A stretch of 64,000 nt of DNA. It comes from Escherichia phage LPEK22. A program made the position numbers and the translations under genes. This document shows, in pieces, positions 29,740 to 39,679 of the stretch. The number at the start of each line of letters is the position of its first letter. The stretch's first letter is position 1. The DNA is taken from the sequence record OK283619.1; one strand, given 5' to 3'. The notes under the pieces are model-generated. The model was not told the DNA's origin. It searched no databases and saw only the letters and a list, made by a program, of their open reading frames with translations.

Positions 29740-29768
29740 AAACCCCGCTTCGGCGGGGTTTTTCTTTA
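29740..29768 (+). terminator. Rho-independent terminator after the major capsid gene
   Basis: aaccccgcttcggcggggtt hairpin plus tttctttat. Confidence 0.8.
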
Positions 29769-29815: not shown

Positions 29816-30052
29816 ATGTCTCATCAATTATCTGGCGGTGCAGTCGATACTCTATTCGTTCTTTTCTGGTTTGGACCTCGTGAAGCTGGGGAAATACCTG
29901 CTAAATCTGGAGAAGCCGAATTGGCCTCCCTGGGGTTTTGTAAACGAGTTGATGTTAAAAACGTACCAAAAGGTCGAGATACACATCTGTGTGTACTCAC
30001 CGAGGAAGGTTACAAATACGCATATCTGAAATATGTTTCTCAAAATGCGTGA
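29816..30052 (+). CDS. Hypothetical protein (78 aa)
   Basis: ATG after RBS aaaggagg (track start upstream is an alternative start). Confidence 0.45.
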   Translation: MSHQLSGGAVDTLFVLFWFGPREAGEIPAKSGEAELASLGFCKRVDVKNVPKGRDTHLCVLTEEGYKYAYLKYVSQNA

Positions 30053-30139
30053 TTGTTTATCGTAACGATTTAATACGCGAATAGTTCAATAACAATTCCT
30101 GTTGTACGATATAACTTTCTTACAACAGGAGTATCAGTC

Positions 30140-30454
30140 ATGACAACCCGAAATATTACCTCTGAACAATCCGTGTCACAAATCCTCATTAATTCCCGCA
30201 CCCAAAAAGAACGTCTTTTTGACATCCTCACTAATGTGATCAATATTCGTCGACAATTAGATGGTGAATTTCCCGAATCTGATTCTGAAGAAAAATCAAC
30301 ACACAATCCAGGTCTTGTTGGTGCTATCCTTAACATACAAGGAGAGCAGGACGATATCATCGATAGAATCAATGCCCACATGGACGTCATCCATACTAAA
30401 CTGGGAACGTTTTATCACCCAAATTGTGAAGACGAGTCTAAAGATAATTGTTAA
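30140..30454 (+). CDS. Hypothetical protein (104 aa)
   Basis: ATG. RBS aggag lies in the 3' arm of a hairpin (30098-30129). Confidence 0.45.
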   Translation: MTTRNITSEQSVSQILINSRTQKERLFDILTNVINIRRQLDGEFPESDSEEKSTHNPGLVGAILNIQGEQDDIIDRINAHMDVIHTKLGTFYHPNCEDESKDNC

Positions 30455-30515
30455 TGTTTTCAATAAATGGGTAATGAACCATCATTACCCAACTTTCACA
30501 ATAGGAATACAACTC

Positions 30516-30710
30516 ATGGCAAAAGAAACTCTTAACAATGAAAACTCCAACTTTGCAGAATGGCATACCGAATTAGAGCGCGTTGCCCGTTCTCAACATG
30601 GTTCTGCCGCTGATGCAGATGCTTGGCGTGAAGATTATGAATCTGGAAAAACTCCACGTCAGGCTTGGGAAGACGAATGGGGGTGGGATGATGCCGACTC
30701 TAATCCGTAA
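30516..30710 (+). CDS. Hypothetical small protein (64 aa)
   Basis: ATG at 30516. The longer track ORF from 30261 overlaps the ORF at 30140 out of frame and is probably not its true start. Confidence 0.3.
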   Translation: MAKETLNNENSNFAEWHTELERVARSQHGSAADADAWREDYESGKTPRQAWEDEWGWDDADSNP

Positions 30711-30921
30711 GATATATCTGGATAAGAACTATTTGGAATCTAAAATCGAAGTTTTCACGGCTCAAAAAATATTTGAAGACGGTGAAACGAGATATTATCT
30801 GAATCCAGACCTTTATCTCCCAGGAAGTAATTTGAATCGCGACATATCCCAAATAGACGGCACAATCATTCGTTGGGAAATAGCGACGCAAGAAGACAAC
30901 TGTCACAACATAACACTTTGA
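30685..30921 (+). CDS. Hypothetical small protein (78 aa)
   Basis: ATG at 30685 after a G-rich RBS. The upstream part of the track ORF overlaps the previous gene. Confidence 0.3.
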   Translation, partial: GMMPTLIRKIYLDKNYLESKIEVFTAQKIFEDGETRYYLNPDLYLPGSNLNRDISQIDGTIIRWEIATQEDNCHNITL

Positions 30922-30936
30922 AGAGAGAACTACATC

Positions 30937-31383
30937 ATGTCTAAACAAAATTATATCTTTATTAGTCCAGGACGTTCCCAGTTTTTTCGTAGCGACATCG
31001 ATACACCTATCGAAGGTTTTCGCATTTTCAAATGCTATAAATTGGCCAGCGGTGACATTGATTATCAAAGTCACGACAATGACCGCCAAGACTTGGTTGA
31101 TAACGGTTGGGAAGAAATAGATTCTCCTCAATATCTGACCGTCAACCTTTATTATATGAAGGAAAGCGGTAAATATTATTCGACTGGGGAGTTGAAAATC
31201 CGAGTTTCAGAAGCCCAATCCAATCCAGCAAAAAGTTGGTATGACACGCAAGAGTTAGTGCGTGATCTCCTGAAGAAAGGCGAACTGCCTGGCTTGGTTA
31301 AAGGTTCCCGTTTTGATACCTTCATGTCCTGTGAACAACACCCGTGCTATGTTCCGACTTTATTTAAAATCAGCAACATGTGA
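30937..31383 (+). CDS. Hypothetical protein (148 aa)
   Basis: ATG with upstream gagagaactacatcATG context shared with the ORF at 32106. Confidence 0.5.
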   Translation: MSKQNYIFISPGRSQFFRSDIDTPIEGFRIFKCYKLASGDIDYQSHDNDRQDLVDNGWEEIDSPQYLTVNLYYMKESGKYYSTGELKIRVSEAQSNPAKSWYDTQELVRDLLKKGELPGLVKGSRFDTFMSCEQHPCYVPTLFKISNM

Positions 31384-31394
31384 GAGATTAATAT

Positions 31395-31769
31395 ATGAGC
31401 AATTTACCACTGCTTCAAGTCGGCGATGTGTTCGTTCTCACAGAAGAAATGACCATTGAAACTCAGGTGCCTAAGCATTTCTTGTATTCTAATTGCAAGG
31501 GAGATTGGCAAACGGACTCTGGTTATATCACCCCTGAGGGATTCTTCGGTTACATGCAAGGGCATTATGTCGTTACCAAAACAGCTCTACAAGGAGGTAG
31601 CGCTGGTCACGACCCATACCCAGACGGTCATCATGTTTGGGCACAGCATACCGAAAATGAACGCATCAGGATCTGTTTTTATCAGACAGGCAGCTTCAGA
31701 AACATGCACCGTAACGTTCCAGTAGTCGGAAAAGCCAAGGCGCAAACATGGACTTGGGAGAAATTATGA
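31395..31769 (+). CDS. Hypothetical protein (124 aa)
   Basis: ATG with RBS gagag. ATGA overlap with the next ORF. Confidence 0.5.
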   Translation: MSNLPLLQVGDVFVLTEEMTIETQVPKHFLYSNCKGDWQTDSGYITPEGFFGYMQGHYVVTKTALQGGSAGHDPYPDGHHVWAQHTENERIRICFYQTGSFRNMHRNVPVVGKAKAQTWTWEKL

Positions 31770-32002
31770 GAATCAAAAAGATTGGAGCAAGCCCGTTGAC
31801 GGGCACTATCTTCCAAGGTACATTGAATACCAAAACCAGTATGTGGGTAGGTGAGAAGACCGACGTGACTAACGACTGTGTAGCGGCTACGGCTGAACAT
31901 ATGCGCCACATCAAGAAAGACTACTGCTTCCCTACTAAAGACGGCAAGTTCCTGGTGCTGAGCGCTGAGGTTCACGACACTCTTCCTGATCGCTTCAAAT
32001 AA
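31766..32002 (+). CDS. Hypothetical protein (78 aa)
   Basis: ATG at 31766 after gggagaaatt. Confidence 0.45.
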   Translation: MRIKKIGASPLTGTIFQGTLNTKTSMWVGEKTDVTNDCVAATAEHMRHIKKDYCFPTKDGKFLVLSAEVHDTLPDRFK

Positions 32003-32105
32003 ATTTAAAATTTATTCAATAAACGGGGTTTACTTCTTCAATAAACCCCGTATACTTCATTCCATAAGCAGCACAACACTGACTCTGAAATGAAGGAACT
32101 ACATC

Positions 32106-32570
32106 ATGACAACCGTAAAAATCTCCGTCTGGGCATTCAACAATTTCACCAAATTTGACGCGTTTGTTAAAAACGCTCTGGGCATCACCAACATAGAATC
32201 TTTCACTTCTTATGACCGCGAAGATCAGGTCAAAATGCTTCGTCCTGAAATCGACCTTGACGCAATGCTGAACGCCATCAAGAATCACGATGACAACCTG
32301 GCTGAATTCGAAAACCTCCGCACCTCTATCTTCAAAAAGAACGGTGGCATTCGTAAGCTGAGCAACAAAACCATCAAATATGTCACCGAAGGGTTCTTTG
32401 TGGTGTTCGACTTCATAGAAACCAAGCCGAACGAACTTCGTAAAGATTTAGACGGCAACGTTATCACCCTGAAAATATTTGGCGAAGCCAAAGCCGATAT
32501 GATGCGTGACGGCCTATGTGATGAGACATTCACATACGACGAATATTGCGATCAGTGCCAAGATCTGTAA
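32106..32570 (+). CDS. Hypothetical protein (154 aa)
   Basis: ATG with RBS aaggaa. Preceded by a hairpin at 32023-32051. Confidence 0.5.
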   Translation: MTTVKISVWAFNNFTKFDAFVKNALGITNIESFTSYDREDQVKMLRPEIDLDAMLNAIKNHDDNLAEFENLRTSIFKKNGGIRKLSNKTIKYVTEGFFVVFDFIETKPNELRKDLDGNVITLKIFGEAKADMMRDGLCDETFTYDEYCDQCQDL

Positions 32571-32638
32571 TTTGTTCTAAACCATTTGAACGGGTATGTT
32601 AAAATCATACCCAACCCCTACAAATAGAGGACTATAAC

Positions 32639-32956
32639 ATGGCTTGTAAAACACCAGAAATGAAATTAGTTGTTTCGTCAAAGGGACGTCGCAGCCGCAG
32701 TCGAAATCTCATCACCCGTTTAGATATTCTACGTCAAAAATATCAAGGTCACAGCGTGTTCACGCGCATCCGTAACGCATTAAAGGAAGGGCGAACCGAG
32801 TTGGAGCTATATCGTCCAAACGGTTCGACTCGTGCGTATCAGACCACCGACGGTTTGCTGGAACTGATCCGCCTCTCGGGAATGAGCATAGAACCTCGTT
32901 CATCAGGGACTCCCTTGTGCAGCCTGTATGTAATCGGCAATCTTGGGGCGCTGTGA
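32639..32956 (+). CDS. Hypothetical basic protein (105 aa)
   Basis: ATG with RBS agagga. Confidence 0.45.
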   Translation: MACKTPEMKLVVSSKGRRSRSRNLITRLDILRQKYQGHSVFTRIRNALKEGRTELELYRPNGSTRAYQTTDGLLELIRLSGMSIEPRSSGTPLCSLYVIGNLGAL

Positions 32957-32961
32957 GTTCT

Positions 32962-33384
32962 ATGAAGAAGTATATCGTTCTTATAACGGGTTCCCGTTCT
33001 ATAACTGAGCGGGATAAAATCTTCGCCAAACTGGATGAACTGTTAGATCCCCACGAGATCGAAACTTTTATAGAAGGTGAAGCGGTTGGTGTGGACTTGA
33101 TATCTCGTGATTGGTGTGAAATCAATTATGTCCATGTTACACCAATGGAGATCCCTAAGAATTATCACACGATATATGGGAAAGGCGCAGGAAACCAACG
33201 TAACAAAGATATGTTAGACAAAGCTATGACCCTGGCCAAACAAAAAGGTCTTGAGGTCTTTGGAATTGCATTATGGGATGGTTCGTCTACTGGGACGCAA
33301 GACATGATTACCCGCATGAAAAAAGCAGGTGTCAATGTCAATATCACTCTCATGGGCAAACCCAAAACCAAACGATTGTTATAA
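32962..33384 (+). CDS. SLOG / DprA-like Rossmann-fold protein (DUF2493-like), 140 aa, tentative
   Basis: MKKYIVLITGSRSITE...IETFIEGEAVGVD...GKGAGNQRNKDM resembles the SLOG (Smf/DprA/LOG) fold pattern. Recognition by eye only. Confidence 0.4.
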   Translation: MKKYIVLITGSRSITERDKIFAKLDELLDPHEIETFIEGEAVGVDLISRDWCEINYVHVTPMEIPKNYHTIYGKGAGNQRNKDMLDKAMTLAKQKGLEVFGIALWDGSSTGTQDMITRMKKAGVNVNITLMGKPKTKRLL

Positions 33385-33418
33385 ATATGTTTGCCTTCAC
33401 ACCCATATGGAGTTAGCT

Positions 33419-33589
33419 ATGCTGCAATTAATTTTGATTCTTTGCGTCGCTTTTACCATGTACTTTCTGGCGCGAATCAGTTATATCACACTAAATGATC
33501 TGAAAAATACACCACGCGAACCTAAATTTATATTTCTAAAGAAATACACCAAAAAGTTCTGCGAGAATTTTATCTATCATCTTCCGTGA
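33419..33589 (+). CDS. Small hydrophobic membrane protein (56 aa)
   Basis: One predicted TM helix (LQLILILCVAFTMYFLA). Start uncertain. Confidence 0.25.
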   Translation: MLQLILILCVAFTMYFLARISYITLNDLKNTPREPKFIFLKKYTKKFCENFIYHLP

Positions 33590-33590
33590 T

Positions 33591-33618
33591 TATAAATACC
33601 CCCAAAATTGGGGGTATT
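33591..33618 (+). promoter_or_regulatory. TATAAATA late-promoter-like box fused to a 9-bp-stem hairpin immediately upstream of the ATG at 33621
   Basis: tataaataccccc aaaatt gggggtattt. Arms aataccccc / gggggtatt. Confidence 0.45.
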
Positions 33619-33620
33619 TT

Positions 33621-34349
33621 ATGAACGCACAAATCTACGATGTCCTTTCCTCTGGTAATGCATTTAGCAACCCGCTTCCGTCCCTCTCCGGTCCCTCACA
33701 GGATTTAATCACCAGTGGTAGTACCAATATACCATTGATAACTGCCAACGCGACTCCGGAGATGCAGGCGGCTATGGTTGCTGGTGGACTAACACCAGAA
33801 AAACTCACAGCAGCCACCACCATGTATAGCGCCGCCAACACGGGGATAACGACACTGAACACATATGGCGACCAAAGTATCAATGACGCGTATTCTCGCA
33901 TCGGTACTTCCGTGTCATACAAATCAGGTCTGAAGGGTATATCACGAGAGCCAAACAATTGTGATTTGATCAACAAGGCTTTTGGTGTTGTTCAGGATTT
34001 AGGACGCCAATGGCTGAATGCTATGGAAGGTGCTCTACAGACCGTAACAAACAAGATATCGGAATTGTATGACATGATTATGGAAGGTGCCTCAGAAGGG
34101 ATGGCAAAACTACAGCAATTGGCTGCTGAAGTAACAGGACATATCAATGAGGCAATAACCGCAGTCAACGGGGTTATAAGTGATATTACAGATGGTATAG
34201 CCGCAGAACTTGCTCACATTGAAAGCATGATCAAAGAATGTCTAAACTTCTCTTTTGCGAATGTTCTTGGAGAATGGGCTAAAGATCTCTGTGCTGGAGG
34301 CGTTATTGATAAAATAGGGACTCCAGAATTAAAAGAGTCCCTGAAATAA
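33621..34349 (+). CDS. Hypothetical protein (242 aa)
   Basis: ATG immediately after the TATAAATA plus hairpin element at 33591-33618. Confidence 0.5.
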   Translation: MNAQIYDVLSSGNAFSNPLPSLSGPSQDLITSGSTNIPLITANATPEMQAAMVAGGLTPEKLTAATTMYSAANTGITTLNTYGDQSINDAYSRIGTSVSYKSGLKGISREPNNCDLINKAFGVVQDLGRQWLNAMEGALQTVTNKISELYDMIMEGASEGMAKLQQLAAEVTGHINEAITAVNGVISDITDGIAAELAHIESMIKECLNFSFANVLGEWAKDLCAGGVIDKIGTPELKESLK

Positions 34350-34970
34350 TTAATGTCTAGCGGGGAGAACTCCCACTGGTTCGATACCTTCCATCACCAG
34401 GGAGTTCACCCCAACATCACTCATTCGAATCCATACTTTACCGCCTGGTCTTATTTCATAGATGTTCATTTCATTACCCACAGCAGATCCATTAACGAAA
34501 ACACCCTGAGTGGCAATTCGGATCGGAGATTTGGTGTTATTAACTATCTGAAATGATATTGCAACGTCTCTGGTGATTTCTACGTCCCTTGCTTGAGTAT
34601 TCCTTCTGAGTTTGTCAAAGAAAGAAGGGTTGAAAGTCGCTATGATGCTATTATTCTGAGAGTAATAAATACTTGCGGATAGATATGGGATCTTTCCTTC
34701 GTCACCTTTCCTCAATAGGGGAATCGTGGTTTTCCAGTATGGTCTCAGTGACTGGTTGTTATCATCAAAACAACCAACAGCTTGAAGAGTCTGGAAGTTC
34801 TGAAAATCAGATACTACTTGATTCAGAATATTTTTATTGCATTTATCAATGTCGGCTGAGATGTTAACAGGTATGGTTCTGATTTCAGGATCCCAGAGGT
34901 CGGTTACAGAAATGACGGACGTGACAAAGATACGGCAACTTGTGAGTGCAAGCACCATTATCATCGTCAT
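34350..34970 (-). CDS. Hypothetical secreted or membrane protein (about 206 aa), antisense to the flanking genes
   Basis: Minus-strand ORF. ATG at 34970 gives a hydrophobic N-terminus (MTMIMVLALTSCRIF). The track start at 35048 is a TTG. Confidence 0.4.
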   Translation of the reverse strand: MTMIMVLALTSCRIFVTSVISVTDLWDPEIRTIPVNISADIDKCNKNILNQVVSDFQNFQTLQAVGCFDDNNQSLRPYWKTTIPLLRKGDEGKIPYLSASIYYSQNNSIIATFNPSFFDKLRRNTQARDVEITRDVAISFQIVNNTKSPIRIATQGVFVNGSAVGNEMNIYEIRPGGKVWIRMSDVGVNSLVMEGIEPVGVLPARH

Positions 34971-35033
34971 GATCCATTTTCTGAATCCGCGTATCAGGAA
35001 CACTAAAACGTTCTCCACAGCAAAGGTGCTAAC

Positions 35034-35531
35034 ATGACAGGTGTACAATTCAAAAACGAAAATCCTAATTTCGCGGCTTCCGATAAATGGCGCTTAACTA
35101 TCGGAGACCTGATATTGCTTACTCGTTCAATACATGACTTCAGTATTCCTGGAGTGTATTCTGAAGGTATCGAGGGACCATCCCCTGGCGATGTGCTCAA
35201 CTCCATACCTTCAGAACGTCTCACGTATGACCCCATCGTATTTACGTTCGTTATCGATGAGAGTTGGTACAACTGGGAACAGATTTACAATTGGATTGCG
35301 TCCAATGCTGGATCTGATTTAGCTGTTAGCCGTGACATCACCATCGACCTTCTTGATAACATGAATCGCCCTGTTGGTCTACAATTGTTGTTGGAAGAAG
35401 CCCGTCCCACAGCTTTGGACAACGTATTGGTGGATGTGGATGCTGCGGTTCCCCAACTGGTCACGACTGTCACGTTCAAATATTTGAAACTGACTCCGAC
35501 TCGCGTCACCCGCGAAATTGATAAACAATAA
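35034..35531 (+). CDS. Hypothetical protein (165 aa)
   Basis: ATG with RBS aaggtg. Confidence 0.5.
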   Translation: MTGVQFKNENPNFAASDKWRLTIGDLILLTRSIHDFSIPGVYSEGIEGPSPGDVLNSIPSERLTYDPIVFTFVIDESWYNWEQIYNWIASNAGSDLAVSRDITIDLLDNMNRPVGLQLLLEEARPTALDNVLVDVDAAVPQLVTTVTFKYLKLTPTRVTREIDKQ

Positions 35532-35569
35532 GTTATAATACAGAGAGTTGAAACAGCAGGGAATAAATC

Positions 35570-36025
35570 ATGAGCGAAACAAAACTTGAAACGATGAAAA
35601 CCGAAGATATAATGGCAGAATTGGAGCCTCTTATTTCGGTAAATCCTGAAGACATGAACTTAGACCAAATGTCATTGAAAATTGGTCGTTCGTGGATGAC
35701 TGTGCAACGCCATTATATTCGTGAAGGAAGATATCTGGAGTATCTAACTGGCAAATTCCGCCAAATAGATCTCTATTTACGCCGATTTTATGCAGGGGAA
35801 TTGCCGCCCAACGTTTATGTTGAACGCCCATTAAAAGTTCGACCCCTGAAATCTGATATAGATGTATGGGTAAAAGCAGATGATGATTATATCGAATTGT
35901 CTAGCATGCTTCAAGAGCAGAAAGCCAAAGTCAAGTTCATCGAAAGTTGCTTAGATCGTTTGAACAAACTCGGATATGAAGTGAAGAATGCTATTGATTG
36001 GCGAAAATATTTGGATGGGATGTAA
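35570..36025 (+). CDS. Hypothetical protein (151 aa)
   Basis: ATG with RBS caggga. TAATG overlap with the next gene. Confidence 0.5.
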   Translation: MSETKLETMKTEDIMAELEPLISVNPEDMNLDQMSLKIGRSWMTVQRHYIREGRYLEYLTGKFRQIDLYLRRFYAGELPPNVYVERPLKVRPLKSDIDVWVKADDDYIELSSMLQEQKAKVKFIESCLDRLNKLGYEVKNAIDWRKYLDGM

Positions 36026-39010: not shown

Positions 39011-39679
39011 ATGCAAGAGATCACTCTCTCCGAACGCACTTTACAACTGCTGGCTAACTTTGAAACCATCTGCCCCTCTATCGTTCTGGCACCTGGTAAA
39101 AAGTTGCGCACTGTTAACGATTCCAGTACAGTTATCGCTATTGCCGACATTGACGAAGACTTCCCGTTCGAATTCCCGATTCTGGATCTGACCAAATTGC
39201 TGGCAATCCAGCGTCTGCCGAGTTTTAAAGGCGGTAAAATTGAAATGTCGGAAGACCACATTTTGCTGAAAGGTGAAAACTCCCAACTGCAATTCTGGCG
39301 TTCCGCTAAAGAACTGACTGTCGTTCCGGCAGACAGCATCGATCTCCCGTCTGTAGAATTTGAAGCAACAGTCACTCCTGAAAAAATGAAAGAGCTGACC
39401 CGCGCATGTTCTACTCTGGGCCACAAAACTGTACGCCTGGTTGCCAGCGGCGGTAAAACTCGTCTGGTGGGCACGACCACTACTATCGACAATTCCAACG
39501 ATTACACTGTTGAGTTGGGTGAAACAACTCTGGGTGATTTTGCTATGCCTGTTGATGTGGTCAACCTGAAAATGATCGAAGGCAACTACGTGATCCGCGC
39601 CTGTGCCGAAATGCAACTGGTTAACTTCCAATCCGCAGACGGCACCATCAACTATTACGTCGGCATGCAGCTGGATTAA
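39011..39679 (+). CDS. Sliding clamp, T4 gp45-like
   Basis: LQLLANFETICPSIVLAPG parallels T4 gp45 (LLKNFATINSGIMLKSG). ATG at 39011 with RBS gagga (track start is TTG). Lies upstream of the clamp loader. Confidence 0.8.
   Translation: MQEITLSERTLQLLANFETICPSIVLAPGKKLRTVNDSSTVIAIADIDEDFPFEFPILDLTKLLAIQRLPSFKGGKIEMSEDHILLKGENSQLQFWRSAKELTVVPADSIDLPSVEFEATVTPEKMKELTRACSTLGHKTVRLVASGGKTRLVGTTTTIDNSNDYTVELGETTLGDFAMPVDVVNLKMIEGNYVIRACAEMQLVNFQSADGTINYYVGMQLD

Follow-up and report, generated by a model that had tools for sequence, protein, structure and literature searches.

A stand-alone YAcAr/DUF2493 SLOG-domain protein of Ackermannviridae with a clade-specific, gp33-like C-terminal tail

Introduction

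YAcAr domains (PF10686, the "YspA, cpYpsA-related SLOG family," previously DUF2493) are among the commonest uncharacterized small domains of phages, prophages, and plasmids, and the sole published functional idea for DUF2493 is that it degrades or senses ADP-ribose-derived immune signals. Here we describe a YAcAr/DUF2493 SLOG-domain gene at positions 32962 to 33384 of a 64,000-nucleotide stretch of Escherichia phage LPEK22 (sequence record OK283619.1; this whole stretch is called the window below), together with a C-terminal tail of its product that resembles the end of the late-transcription co-activator gp33 of the same phage family.

Several described systems bear on this protein. In DprA/Smf (PF02481; structures 4LJR from H. 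pylori and 3UQZ from S. pneumoniae), single-stranded DNA (ssDNA) is bound through two motifs, which in the H. pylori protein are "G-S/T/A-R" (G50 to R52) and "F/L/Y-x-x-R-N/D" (F140 to N144) and jointly hold one flipped thymine with its phosphate; the substitutions R52E and R143E lower ssDNA affinity 315-fold and 173-fold, respectively (PMC3950713). In YpsA-like proteins, a GxD/E motif after strand 2 is the predicted substrate-binding signature (PMC6459960). The SLOG domains of Thoeris ThsA (PDB 7UXS, bound to 3' cyclic ADP-ribose [3'cADPR]) and of ShosA (8ZVA) belong to host defence proteins fused to or paired with effectors. Among viruses, 19% of medium-sized phages have SLOG domains, whose fusions and neighbourhoods include Macro and NADAR domains (PMC9503650; PMC7824862), and sporadic fusions to SF1 helicase, 3'-5' exonuclease, HNH, and HTH domains have been reported (PMC9503650). 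HelB of phage ICP1 is an SF1B helicase of the Dda type whose C-terminal part is a DUF2493 domain (bioRxiv 10.1101/671271). For the tail, the relevant precedent is phage T4, in which gp33 (TLDFLL), gp55 (SLDFLYEAND), and gp43 (SLDFLFG) carry interchangeable clamp-binding C termini and late transcription requires the binding of gp33 to the sliding clamp (PMC2988020).

Compared with these systems, the protein described here has the stand-alone size (about 120 to 140 amino acids) and the motif set (GSR, GxAxG(V/I)D, GxxRN, and GxSxGT) of the PF10686 proteins found in phages, prophages, and plasmids, and it departs from them in that the Ackermannviridae clade alone adds an invariant C-terminal tail of about 10 residues. 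It is half the size of DprA/Smf, lacks the SAM and C-terminal winged-helix domains as well as the DprA dimer and RecA interfaces, has a glycine in place of the motif 2 aromatic residue, and does not match the Pfam DprA model. YpsA belongs to a different Pfam family, and its cell-division phenotype is specific to Firmicutes. Unlike ThsA and ShosA, the protein is a stand-alone phage protein without an effector domain or a PADLOC match. A parallel for a link with DNA machinery is HelB, where the DUF2493 domain is joined to a replication/recombination helicase, much as the SLOG gene of Vibrio phage CZ01 adjoins dda; in HelB, however, the domain is fused, whereas here it is free-standing and any such link would run via the tail. 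The tail itself shares with the T4 peptides an extreme C-terminal, flexible position and matches the gp33 of its own phage family in the pattern K[ST]K[KR]L-hydrophobic-COOH. In contrast, the T4 motif [ST]LDFL[FYL] is hydrophobic/acidic, while the Ackermannviridae version is basic/hydrophobic and its binding to the clamp is presumed.

Results

An ordinary member of the YAcAr family

The ORF (open reading frame) of 140 amino acids occupies exactly positions 32962 to 33384 of the forward strand, from an ATG to a stop codon at 33382 to 33384. A longer version starting at a GTG at position 32917 (155 amino acids), found in some records (e.g., P0001), is unsupported, as the aligned homologues all begin at the ATG. 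The features on which the following analysis draws are these:

32962 to 33384, forward strand: YAcAr/DUF2493 SLOG-domain protein gene, 140 amino acids
32986 to 32997, forward strand: T-G-S-R loop after strand 1 (T9 to R12), matching DprA motif 1 "G-S/T/A-R"
33076 to 33096, forward strand: G-x-A-x-G-V-D loop/helix after strand 2 (G39 to D45), the GxD/E of the YpsA clade, aligning with SGxAxG(I/V)D of DprA
33187 to 33204, forward strand: A-G-x-x-R-N (A76 to N81), where the long helix 3 begins, taken as the counterpart of DprA motif 2 from its motif and helix position but lacking the aromatic residue
33268 to 33297, forward strand: A-x-W-D-G-S-S-T-G-T loop after strand 4, homologous to "PGGxGTxxE" of LOG, with Met115 at the position of the catalytic Glu
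33349 to 33381, forward strand: C-terminal tail L-M-G-K-P-K-T-K-R-L-L-COOH, clade specific and flexible, a candidate clamp-binding peptide
39011 to 39679, forward strand: gp45-like sliding clamp gene, 5.6 kb downstream of the SLOG gene, the proposed partner of the tail

The ORF is a real, conserved phage gene under constraint and not a chance ORF, because a set of 5.8 billion proteins contains 33 close homologues with identities as low as 44%, because tblastn matched 557 phage records, spread over many unrelated lineages, because the residues that are invariant in the alignment of the close homologues cluster in four loops, and because the codon differences from phage BSP101 comprise 9 synonymous and 2 nonsynonymous changes. 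All 33 homologues carry PF10686, and the complete genomes that encode them measure about 155 to 164 kb. A 1.5-kb query around the gene, which belongs to a Kuttervirus (Ackermannviridae), was 99.6% identical to phage BRM 13312 and was covered to at least 80% by 167 phage records. The megablast search with this region also matched one "Enterococcus" and one "Pseudomonas" phage record, both probably mislabelled or contaminated.

A first-pass annotation of the window had tentatively called this ORF SLOG/DprA-like on the basis of three motifs, which are all present in it (LITGSRSI, GEAVGVD, and YGKGAGNQRN) and are joined by a further one, ALWDGSSTGT, at nucleotides 33268 to 33297. Among the three families it had named as candidates, DUF2493 proved to be the right one: residues 5 to 59 match positions 2 to 56 of the 66 positions of PF10686 with 35.3 bits against a gathering cutoff of 28.2 (E value of 1e-8), whereas the models for DprA (PF02481) and LOG (PF03641) were not matched in the Pfam search. 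The structure prediction that it had proposed as a check likewise returned SLOG proteins as matches. The model is an SLOG-type Rossmannoid with a five-stranded parallel sheet and glycine-rich loops after strands 1, 2, and 4, and its structural matches, with which Foldseek agreed, scored as follows:

YpsA (2NX2): 11.5
TM1055: 10.8
TRPM2 SLOG domain: 10.7
ShosA: 10.7
ThsA SLOG domain with 3'cADPR: 10.5
DprA: 10.0 to 9.3
MoCo carrier protein: 9.6
LOG: 9.2

Since the Pfam, profile, and structural matches agree on YAcAr/SLOG, the earlier SLOG call was correct. The protein is not a DprA orthologue: PF02481 was not matched at an E value of ≤1, its 140 amino acids fall short of the roughly 205 residues of a DprA domain, and the domains that flank this one in DprA are absent.

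A search with a profile of the clade returned 19,402 cluster representatives at an E value of ≤1e-3 (1.84 billion proteins, clustered at 50% identity), mostly stand-alone proteins of 110 to 150 amino acids. Ten longer or multidomain relatives were scanned, and all 10 turned out to be YAcAr proteins with sub-threshold similarity to DprA (17 to 28 bits against a cutoff of 29.6). The family is also carried by plasmids, where it is labelled "DUF2493 domain-containing protein" or "SLOG family protein," and some phage records and UniRef already name close homologues "YspA domain containing protein" or "DUF2493." Scans of the protein against NCBIfam gave no match and against PADLOC no family at an E value of ≤1. 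Searching the PDB with the single sequence yielded a chance match only, while the clade profile found DprA proteins as the nearest solved sequences (E value of 0.008), aligned over GSR...SGxAxG(V/I)D. The gene is thus an ordinary, already annotatable member of a very large known family. What is new here is the replication/recombination setting of most of the homologues examined and the C-terminal tail that only the Ackermannviridae possess; this clade-specific, gp33-like tail is the only feature of the protein that is worth following up.

The C-terminal tail resembles that of gp33

The tail is invariant or nearly so across the clade, including homologues that are otherwise only 44 to 60% identical (the alignment spans 44 to 94%), and the last block of the structural model, with a predicted local distance difference test (pLDDT) score of 59, is predicted to be flexible. 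It occurs only in the Ackermannviridae clade (P0001 to P0038) and was missing from all of the other family representatives (about 140) and from all five of the other phage homologues examined. Because the genes relevant for a comparison lie outside the window, we used the complete genome of BSP101 (157 kb), a 98%-identical phage, and its six-frame ORFs of at least 40 codons (n = 1,792). The gp33-like late-transcription co-activator of BSP101 ends in ...LKGELKSKKLI, and it and the SLOG protein are the only ones among the 1,792 ORFs with an ending of the form K[ST][KR][KR]L[LIFMV]. When the ORF ends were scored against gp33 tails alone, the SLOG tail ranked first of 1,791 non-self ends, with a score of 17.8 compared to 12.8 for the next best and a background mean of -4.4 (standard deviation, 4.9). 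Within the window, too, the SLOG ORF is the only one of 689 ORFs that ends in [KR]x[KR][KR][LI][LIFMV].

The same ending is a regular feature of gp33 in these phages. Fifteen of 16 Ackermannviridae-like gp33 homologues (PF16805) end in KSKK[LI][ILFV]-COOH, and the sixteenth has four residues beyond KSKKLV; in the alignment, this end falls opposite KTNTLDFLL, the terminus of T4 gp33. The literal T4 motif [ST]LDFL[FYL] is absent from the SLOG tail, and the clamp-binding motif of Ackermannviridae seems, from these alignments, to have become basic. The SLOG end PKTKRLL matches the gp33 tails. The end of the Ackermannviridae DNA polymerase, HKRRVNLL(S/A)MMGKKG, aligns with T4 EEKASLDFLFG (BSP101 polymerase, L006 34444 to 37440), its KRRVNLL resembling the SLOG and gp33 tails in part. 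By analogy with T4, we infer that K[ST]K[KR]L-hydrophobic-COOH is the clamp-docking peptide of Ackermannviridae and that the SLOG protein is a clamp client.

Some further C termini were recorded alongside this comparison. In the Ackermann-like Vibrio phage 1.255.O (MG592621.1), the polymerase has an extra 25-residue, lysine-rich extension ending in KKARKLW-COOH. A scan of viral contigs with the polymerase C terminus returned identical genomes only, and a record labelled "Enterococcus phage Efm 3-10" (OR844942.1; 111 kb), whose polymerase C terminus is 100% identical to that of a Salmonella Kuttervirus, is probably mislabelled or contaminated. The only other annotated BSP101 protein with a [KR][KR]L-hydrophobic C terminus is gp046 (L006 28053 to 29162, reverse strand; 369 amino acids, PHROG 2087, no recognizable family), which ends in ...NGRTYKRLF and is a possible further carrier of the tail motif.

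Four conserved loops line a putative nucleotide pocket

The remainder of the protein is a single domain with a polar, glycine-rich pocket formed by four loops (TGSR, GxAxGVD, AGxxRN, and GxSxGT). G10, G39, G43, D45, R80, N81, G111, and T112 are invariant across the whole family, and R12, A41, A76, G77, M84, A103, and S109 are conserved in at least 90% of it. In the first loop, G10-S11-R12 corresponds to the ssDNA-binding motif 1 of DprA, is invariant in the clade, and aligns with GTR/GSR of DprA; the G39 to D45 stretch aligns to both the H. pylori and the S. pneumoniae proteins and contains, as G43-V44-D45, the GxD/E signature of the YpsA-like clade, invariant in the close clade and family-wide. 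At the site of DprA motif 2, R80-N81 is invariant and the aromatic position is taken by G77, an equivalence that is drawn from motif and helix position and not from structural superposition. Given that motif 1 of DprA is present exactly and, of motif 2, the R-N, the conserved site looks like a pocket for one nucleotide unit, either free or within ssDNA.

The fourth loop distinguishes the protein from LOG enzymes. It reads DGSSTGTQDM, with an invariant Met115 where PGGxGTxxE of LOG has its catalytic Glu, and relatives read PGGxGTxxM. Because the catalytic Glu is absent, LOG-type catalysis was rejected, and PF03641 was not matched either; judged by these residues, the protein is probably a binder and not a LOG-type hydrolase.

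Most of the homologues inspected lie in replication or recombination modules

We inspected by hand the surroundings of homologues in 12 hand-picked phage lineages, to which no statistic was applied. In about 10 of the 12, the homologue lies in a replication or recombination module. Examples of the contexts are as follows:

Vibrio phage CZ01 (Straboviridae): immediately upstream of the dda helicase gene
KpV52: overlapping the end of the DNA polymerase gene
Gordonia phage BlueNGold: between a RuvC-like resolvase and a helicase
Delftia phage PhiW-14: after the clamp loader and regA
Campylobacter phage F348: near uvsX
Bas82: between primase and ParB
Mycobacteriophage Arturo: among DnaB, a phosphoribosyltransferase, endonuclease VII, and primase
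IME307: near dnaC
Rhodobacter phage RcPutin: near a nucleoside hydrolase, MazG, and an ADP-ribosyltransferase
N4-like phage: in the early left-end region, where host-takeover genes sit

DNA replication and recombination thus appear as the recurring theme, though weakly so in a sample this small. The homologue of PhiW-14 (L003 3992 to 4680) has an 18-residue C-terminal extension of its own, ...IPPSVGPLSAFMVRPGD, and 133 nucleotides of its coding sequence are shared with the annotated gene that follows.

The gene belongs to a collinear block upstream of the sliding clamp gene

The SLOG gene sits in a same-strand run of small ORFs that begins after a strong intrinsic terminator (29740 to 29761; a 9-bp stem, 6 of its pairs G-C, and then a T-run) directly behind the major capsid gene. 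The run therefore needs its own promoter or read-through, and no promoter was identified. Around the SLOG gene, the order is as follows:

32639 to 32956, forward strand: 105-amino-acid gene, PHROG 4663, ending 5 nucleotides before the SLOG start codon
33419 to 33589: 56-amino-acid, membrane-like ORF, PHROG 4845, next after the SLOG gene; its N terminus has a hydrophobic segment, MLQLILILCVAFTMYFLARI
33621 to 34349: DUF7217 gene, after the 56-amino-acid ORF
Reverse strand, after the DUF7217 gene: DUF7424 gene
35034 to 35531: gp3-like tail-completion gene
35570 to 36025: uvsY

The 105-amino-acid gene is probably cotranslated with the SLOG gene. Behind uvsY follow genes for an exonuclease, a helicase, the sliding clamp, and the clamp loaders and then regA. 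The SLOG gene precedes the set of uvsY, exonuclease, helicase, and clamp genes by four genes. The clamp gene is annotated as a sliding clamp in BSP101, where its homologue weakly matches Pfam gp45-slide_C (E value of 8e-4), and the product translated from the window ORF is acidic (isoelectric point, 4.7). Pfam and PHROG scans of ten neighbouring ORFs returned DUF7446, DUF7217, DUF7424, or nothing.

The region from 29816 to 36025 had been described in the first-pass annotation as an accessory island packed with small unknown ORFs. Many such ORFs are indeed present, but the description does not hold for 35034 to 35531 (gp3-like) and 35570 to 36025 (uvsY). Moreover, Kuttervirus and Taipeivirus share the block in collinear order, 10 of its 15 genes being conserved (43% identity for the upstream 105-amino-acid partner and 59% for the SLOG gene), and it is not a variable island within the enterobacterial Ackermannviridae. 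In a metagenomic relative, the block recurs with a slight rearrangement. In the distant, Ackermann-like Vibrio phage K485 (OZ196435.1, 8800 to 19000), the small ORFs that here separate the capsid gene from the DUF7424/gp3/uvsY block, the SLOG and DUF7217 genes among them, are all missing, and a homing endonuclease gene stands in their place.

Possible transcription signals flank the 56-amino-acid ORF. A hairpin at 33586 to 33625, between this ORF and the DUF7217 gene (-17.8 kcal/mol; z = -4.1; 0 of 200 shuffles as good), is followed by a T-rich stretch and looks like an intrinsic terminator closing the SLOG-containing unit; it was not listed by the consensus scan. The T4-type late-promoter word TATAAATA overlaps this hairpin at 33591 to 33598, 23 nucleotides before the DUF7217 start, and a second copy, at 33380 to 33387, overlaps the SLOG stop codon about 32 nucleotides upstream of the 56-amino-acid ORF (ATG at 33419, with GGAG 6 nucleotides before it). 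The word is not enriched in the 64-kb window (3 found, 2.5 expected), but two of its three copies fall in adjacent intergenic spots right after the SLOG gene, an arrangement that suggests that late transcription takes over at this point. Scanning the window for Rfam families and tRNAs gave no hit, and a literature search for expression timing in Ackermannviridae found nothing usable.

Three consecutive genes of this block (window positions 32962 to 34349) are merged in one public profile, PHROG 289 ("GTP-binding domain"; 500 columns), whose parts correspond to them as follows:

Columns 20 to 146: SLOG protein, 32962 to 33384
Columns 161 to 207: 56-amino-acid ORF, 33419 to 33589
Columns 259 to 500: DUF7217 protein, 33621 to 34349

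Because the profile is chimeric, its label is unreliable for all three genes in RefSeq phage annotation.

Discussion

Since the tail of the SLOG protein copies the end of gp33, which in T4 is the clamp-docking peptide, we consider recruitment to the clamp the most likely mechanism. The tail K-T-K-R-L-L-COOH would bring the protein to the phage gp45-like clamp on DNA, where, at intermediates of replication or recombination, its DprA-like pocket may capture an exposed nucleotide or ssDNA. The pocket would take up one nucleotide unit (base and phosphate), as the equivalent DprA motifs insert one thymine of ssDNA, and the protein might then act as a small DprA-like accessory or mediator. Alternatively, it may compete with gp33 or the polymerase for the clamp and thereby modulate other clamp clients. 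Argued from T4 and DprA, the idea of a clamp-recruited, DprA-like binder of nucleotide or ssDNA is put forward tentatively, as a serious possibility that stops somewhat short of being probable. A more specific proposal, which is possible but rather doubtful, is that the clamp peptide has shifted from the [ST]LDFL-hydrophobic form of T4 to a basic K[ST]K[KR]L-hydrophobic form and that the SLOG protein has acquired it as an unrecognized clamp client. Local evidence, in any case, points more towards DNA metabolism than towards counter-defence or signalling.

Several observations weigh against clamp recruitment and DprA-like binding. On the side of the tail, the motif was noticed after the fact, the resemblance of the polymerase end to the SLOG and gp33 tails is only partial, the gp55 homologue of BSP101 has no comparable C-terminal end, and clamp binding by the basic gp33 tail of Ackermannviridae is extrapolated from the hydrophobic/acidic motif of T4. 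On the side of the pocket, the motif 2 aromatic residue of DprA (F140) is a glycine, the dimer interface and the flanking domains of DprA are absent, and a pocket for a single nucleotide would accept free nucleotides no less readily than ssDNA. Gene neighbourhood carries little weight as an argument because small accessory genes of many kinds collect in replication modules. Finally, a literature search for experiments on phage YAcAr proteins yielded nothing usable.

Among the alternatives, counter-defence fares best. The pocket would sense, sponge, or degrade (by N-glycosidic cleavage) a signal derived from nicotinamide adenine dinucleotide (NAD+), such as the cADPR isomers of TIR/Thoeris-type systems. 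This is the published prediction of Iyer, Burroughs, and Aravind for viral YpsA-like SLOG domains (PMC9503650; PMC7824862), backed by the Macro/NADAR fusions and neighbourhoods reported in the same work, and it is consistent with the conserved GxD motif of the YpsA clade, the structural match to the ThsA SLOG domain, the RcPutin context with its nucleoside hydrolase, MazG, and ADP-ribosyltransferase genes, and the early left-end location in the N4-like phage. Against it, the annotation of the whole 157-kb BSP101 genome contains no Macro, NADAR, Nudix, or NAD-salvage gene, a weak negative because most BSP101 genes are "hypothetical"; there is no PADLOC match; and the LOG-type catalytic Glu is absent, so that hydrolysis of a signal would need a different mechanism. 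Most of the contexts examined are, moreover, replication or recombination modules, and counter-defence leaves the clade-invariant gp33-like tail unexplained. Taken together, we regard it as unlikely, if well worth keeping in mind.

A role as nucleotide-pool enzyme is considerably less plausible. The protein would here be a LOG-like N-glycosidase or phosphoribohydrolase that removes an unwanted (deoxy)nucleotide, or part of a modification pathway. Because homologues occur in PhiW-14 and Ackermannviridae, a part in thymidine hypermodification was considered, for example, the exclusion of canonical deoxythymidine or deoxyuridine monophosphate (dTMP or dUMP) in a phage with hypermodified thymidine. 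Homologues are found in modified-DNA phages (PhiW-14, Ackermannviridae, and Campylobacter phages) and also in siphoviruses of about 58 to 60 kb, and in some phages MazG and ribonucleotide reductase genes adjoin the homologue. Yet the Glu of PGGxGTxxE is replaced by an invariant Met, the Pfam LOG model is not matched, and the family is also common in phages without known DNA modification. The thymidine hypermodification of phage ViI, furthermore, has been reconstituted with gp67, gp160, gp226, gp243, and gp247 in a study that does not mention SLOG, DUF2493, or DprA (PMC8989533), and with the pathway complete with these five proteins, we judged a role in it unlikely.

More improbable still is a YpsA-like manipulation of the host, by which the protein, once it had bound a nucleotide ligand, would disturb a host process such as FtsZ-dependent cell division. 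Its Pfam family is YAcAr and not YpsA proper, the effect of YpsA is known only in Firmicutes, the residues that YpsA needs for its effect on division are not conserved even in YoqJ, its own prophage paralogue (PMC6459960), and no contextual link to division genes was found. A GTP-binding protein, as which PHROG 289 (E value of 7e-43) and the likewise labelled RefSeq phage records present it, can be dismissed, since neither a Walker A (GxxxxGK[ST]) nor an NKxD motif is present, no P-loop fold is among the structural matches, and the label goes back to the old name "putative GTP-binding protein" in phiEco32, carried on in a chimeric profile.

If the tail is something other than a clamp-docking peptide, the protein is an ordinary family member for which the existing YspA/DUF2493 SLOG annotation is adequate. 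If, on the other hand, the tail does dock on the clamp, this would provide the first functional and mechanistic handle on the DUF2493 family, and it would move the expected function from the interception of signals in the cytosol to the recognition of nucleotides or ssDNA on DNA. The protein would then work at replication forks, at intermediates of recombination, or at late promoters activated by the clamp, and it might compete with gp33. Docking would, in addition, establish a divergent clamp-binding motif for an entire phage family, one that serves in the biocontrol of Salmonella and E. coli O157.

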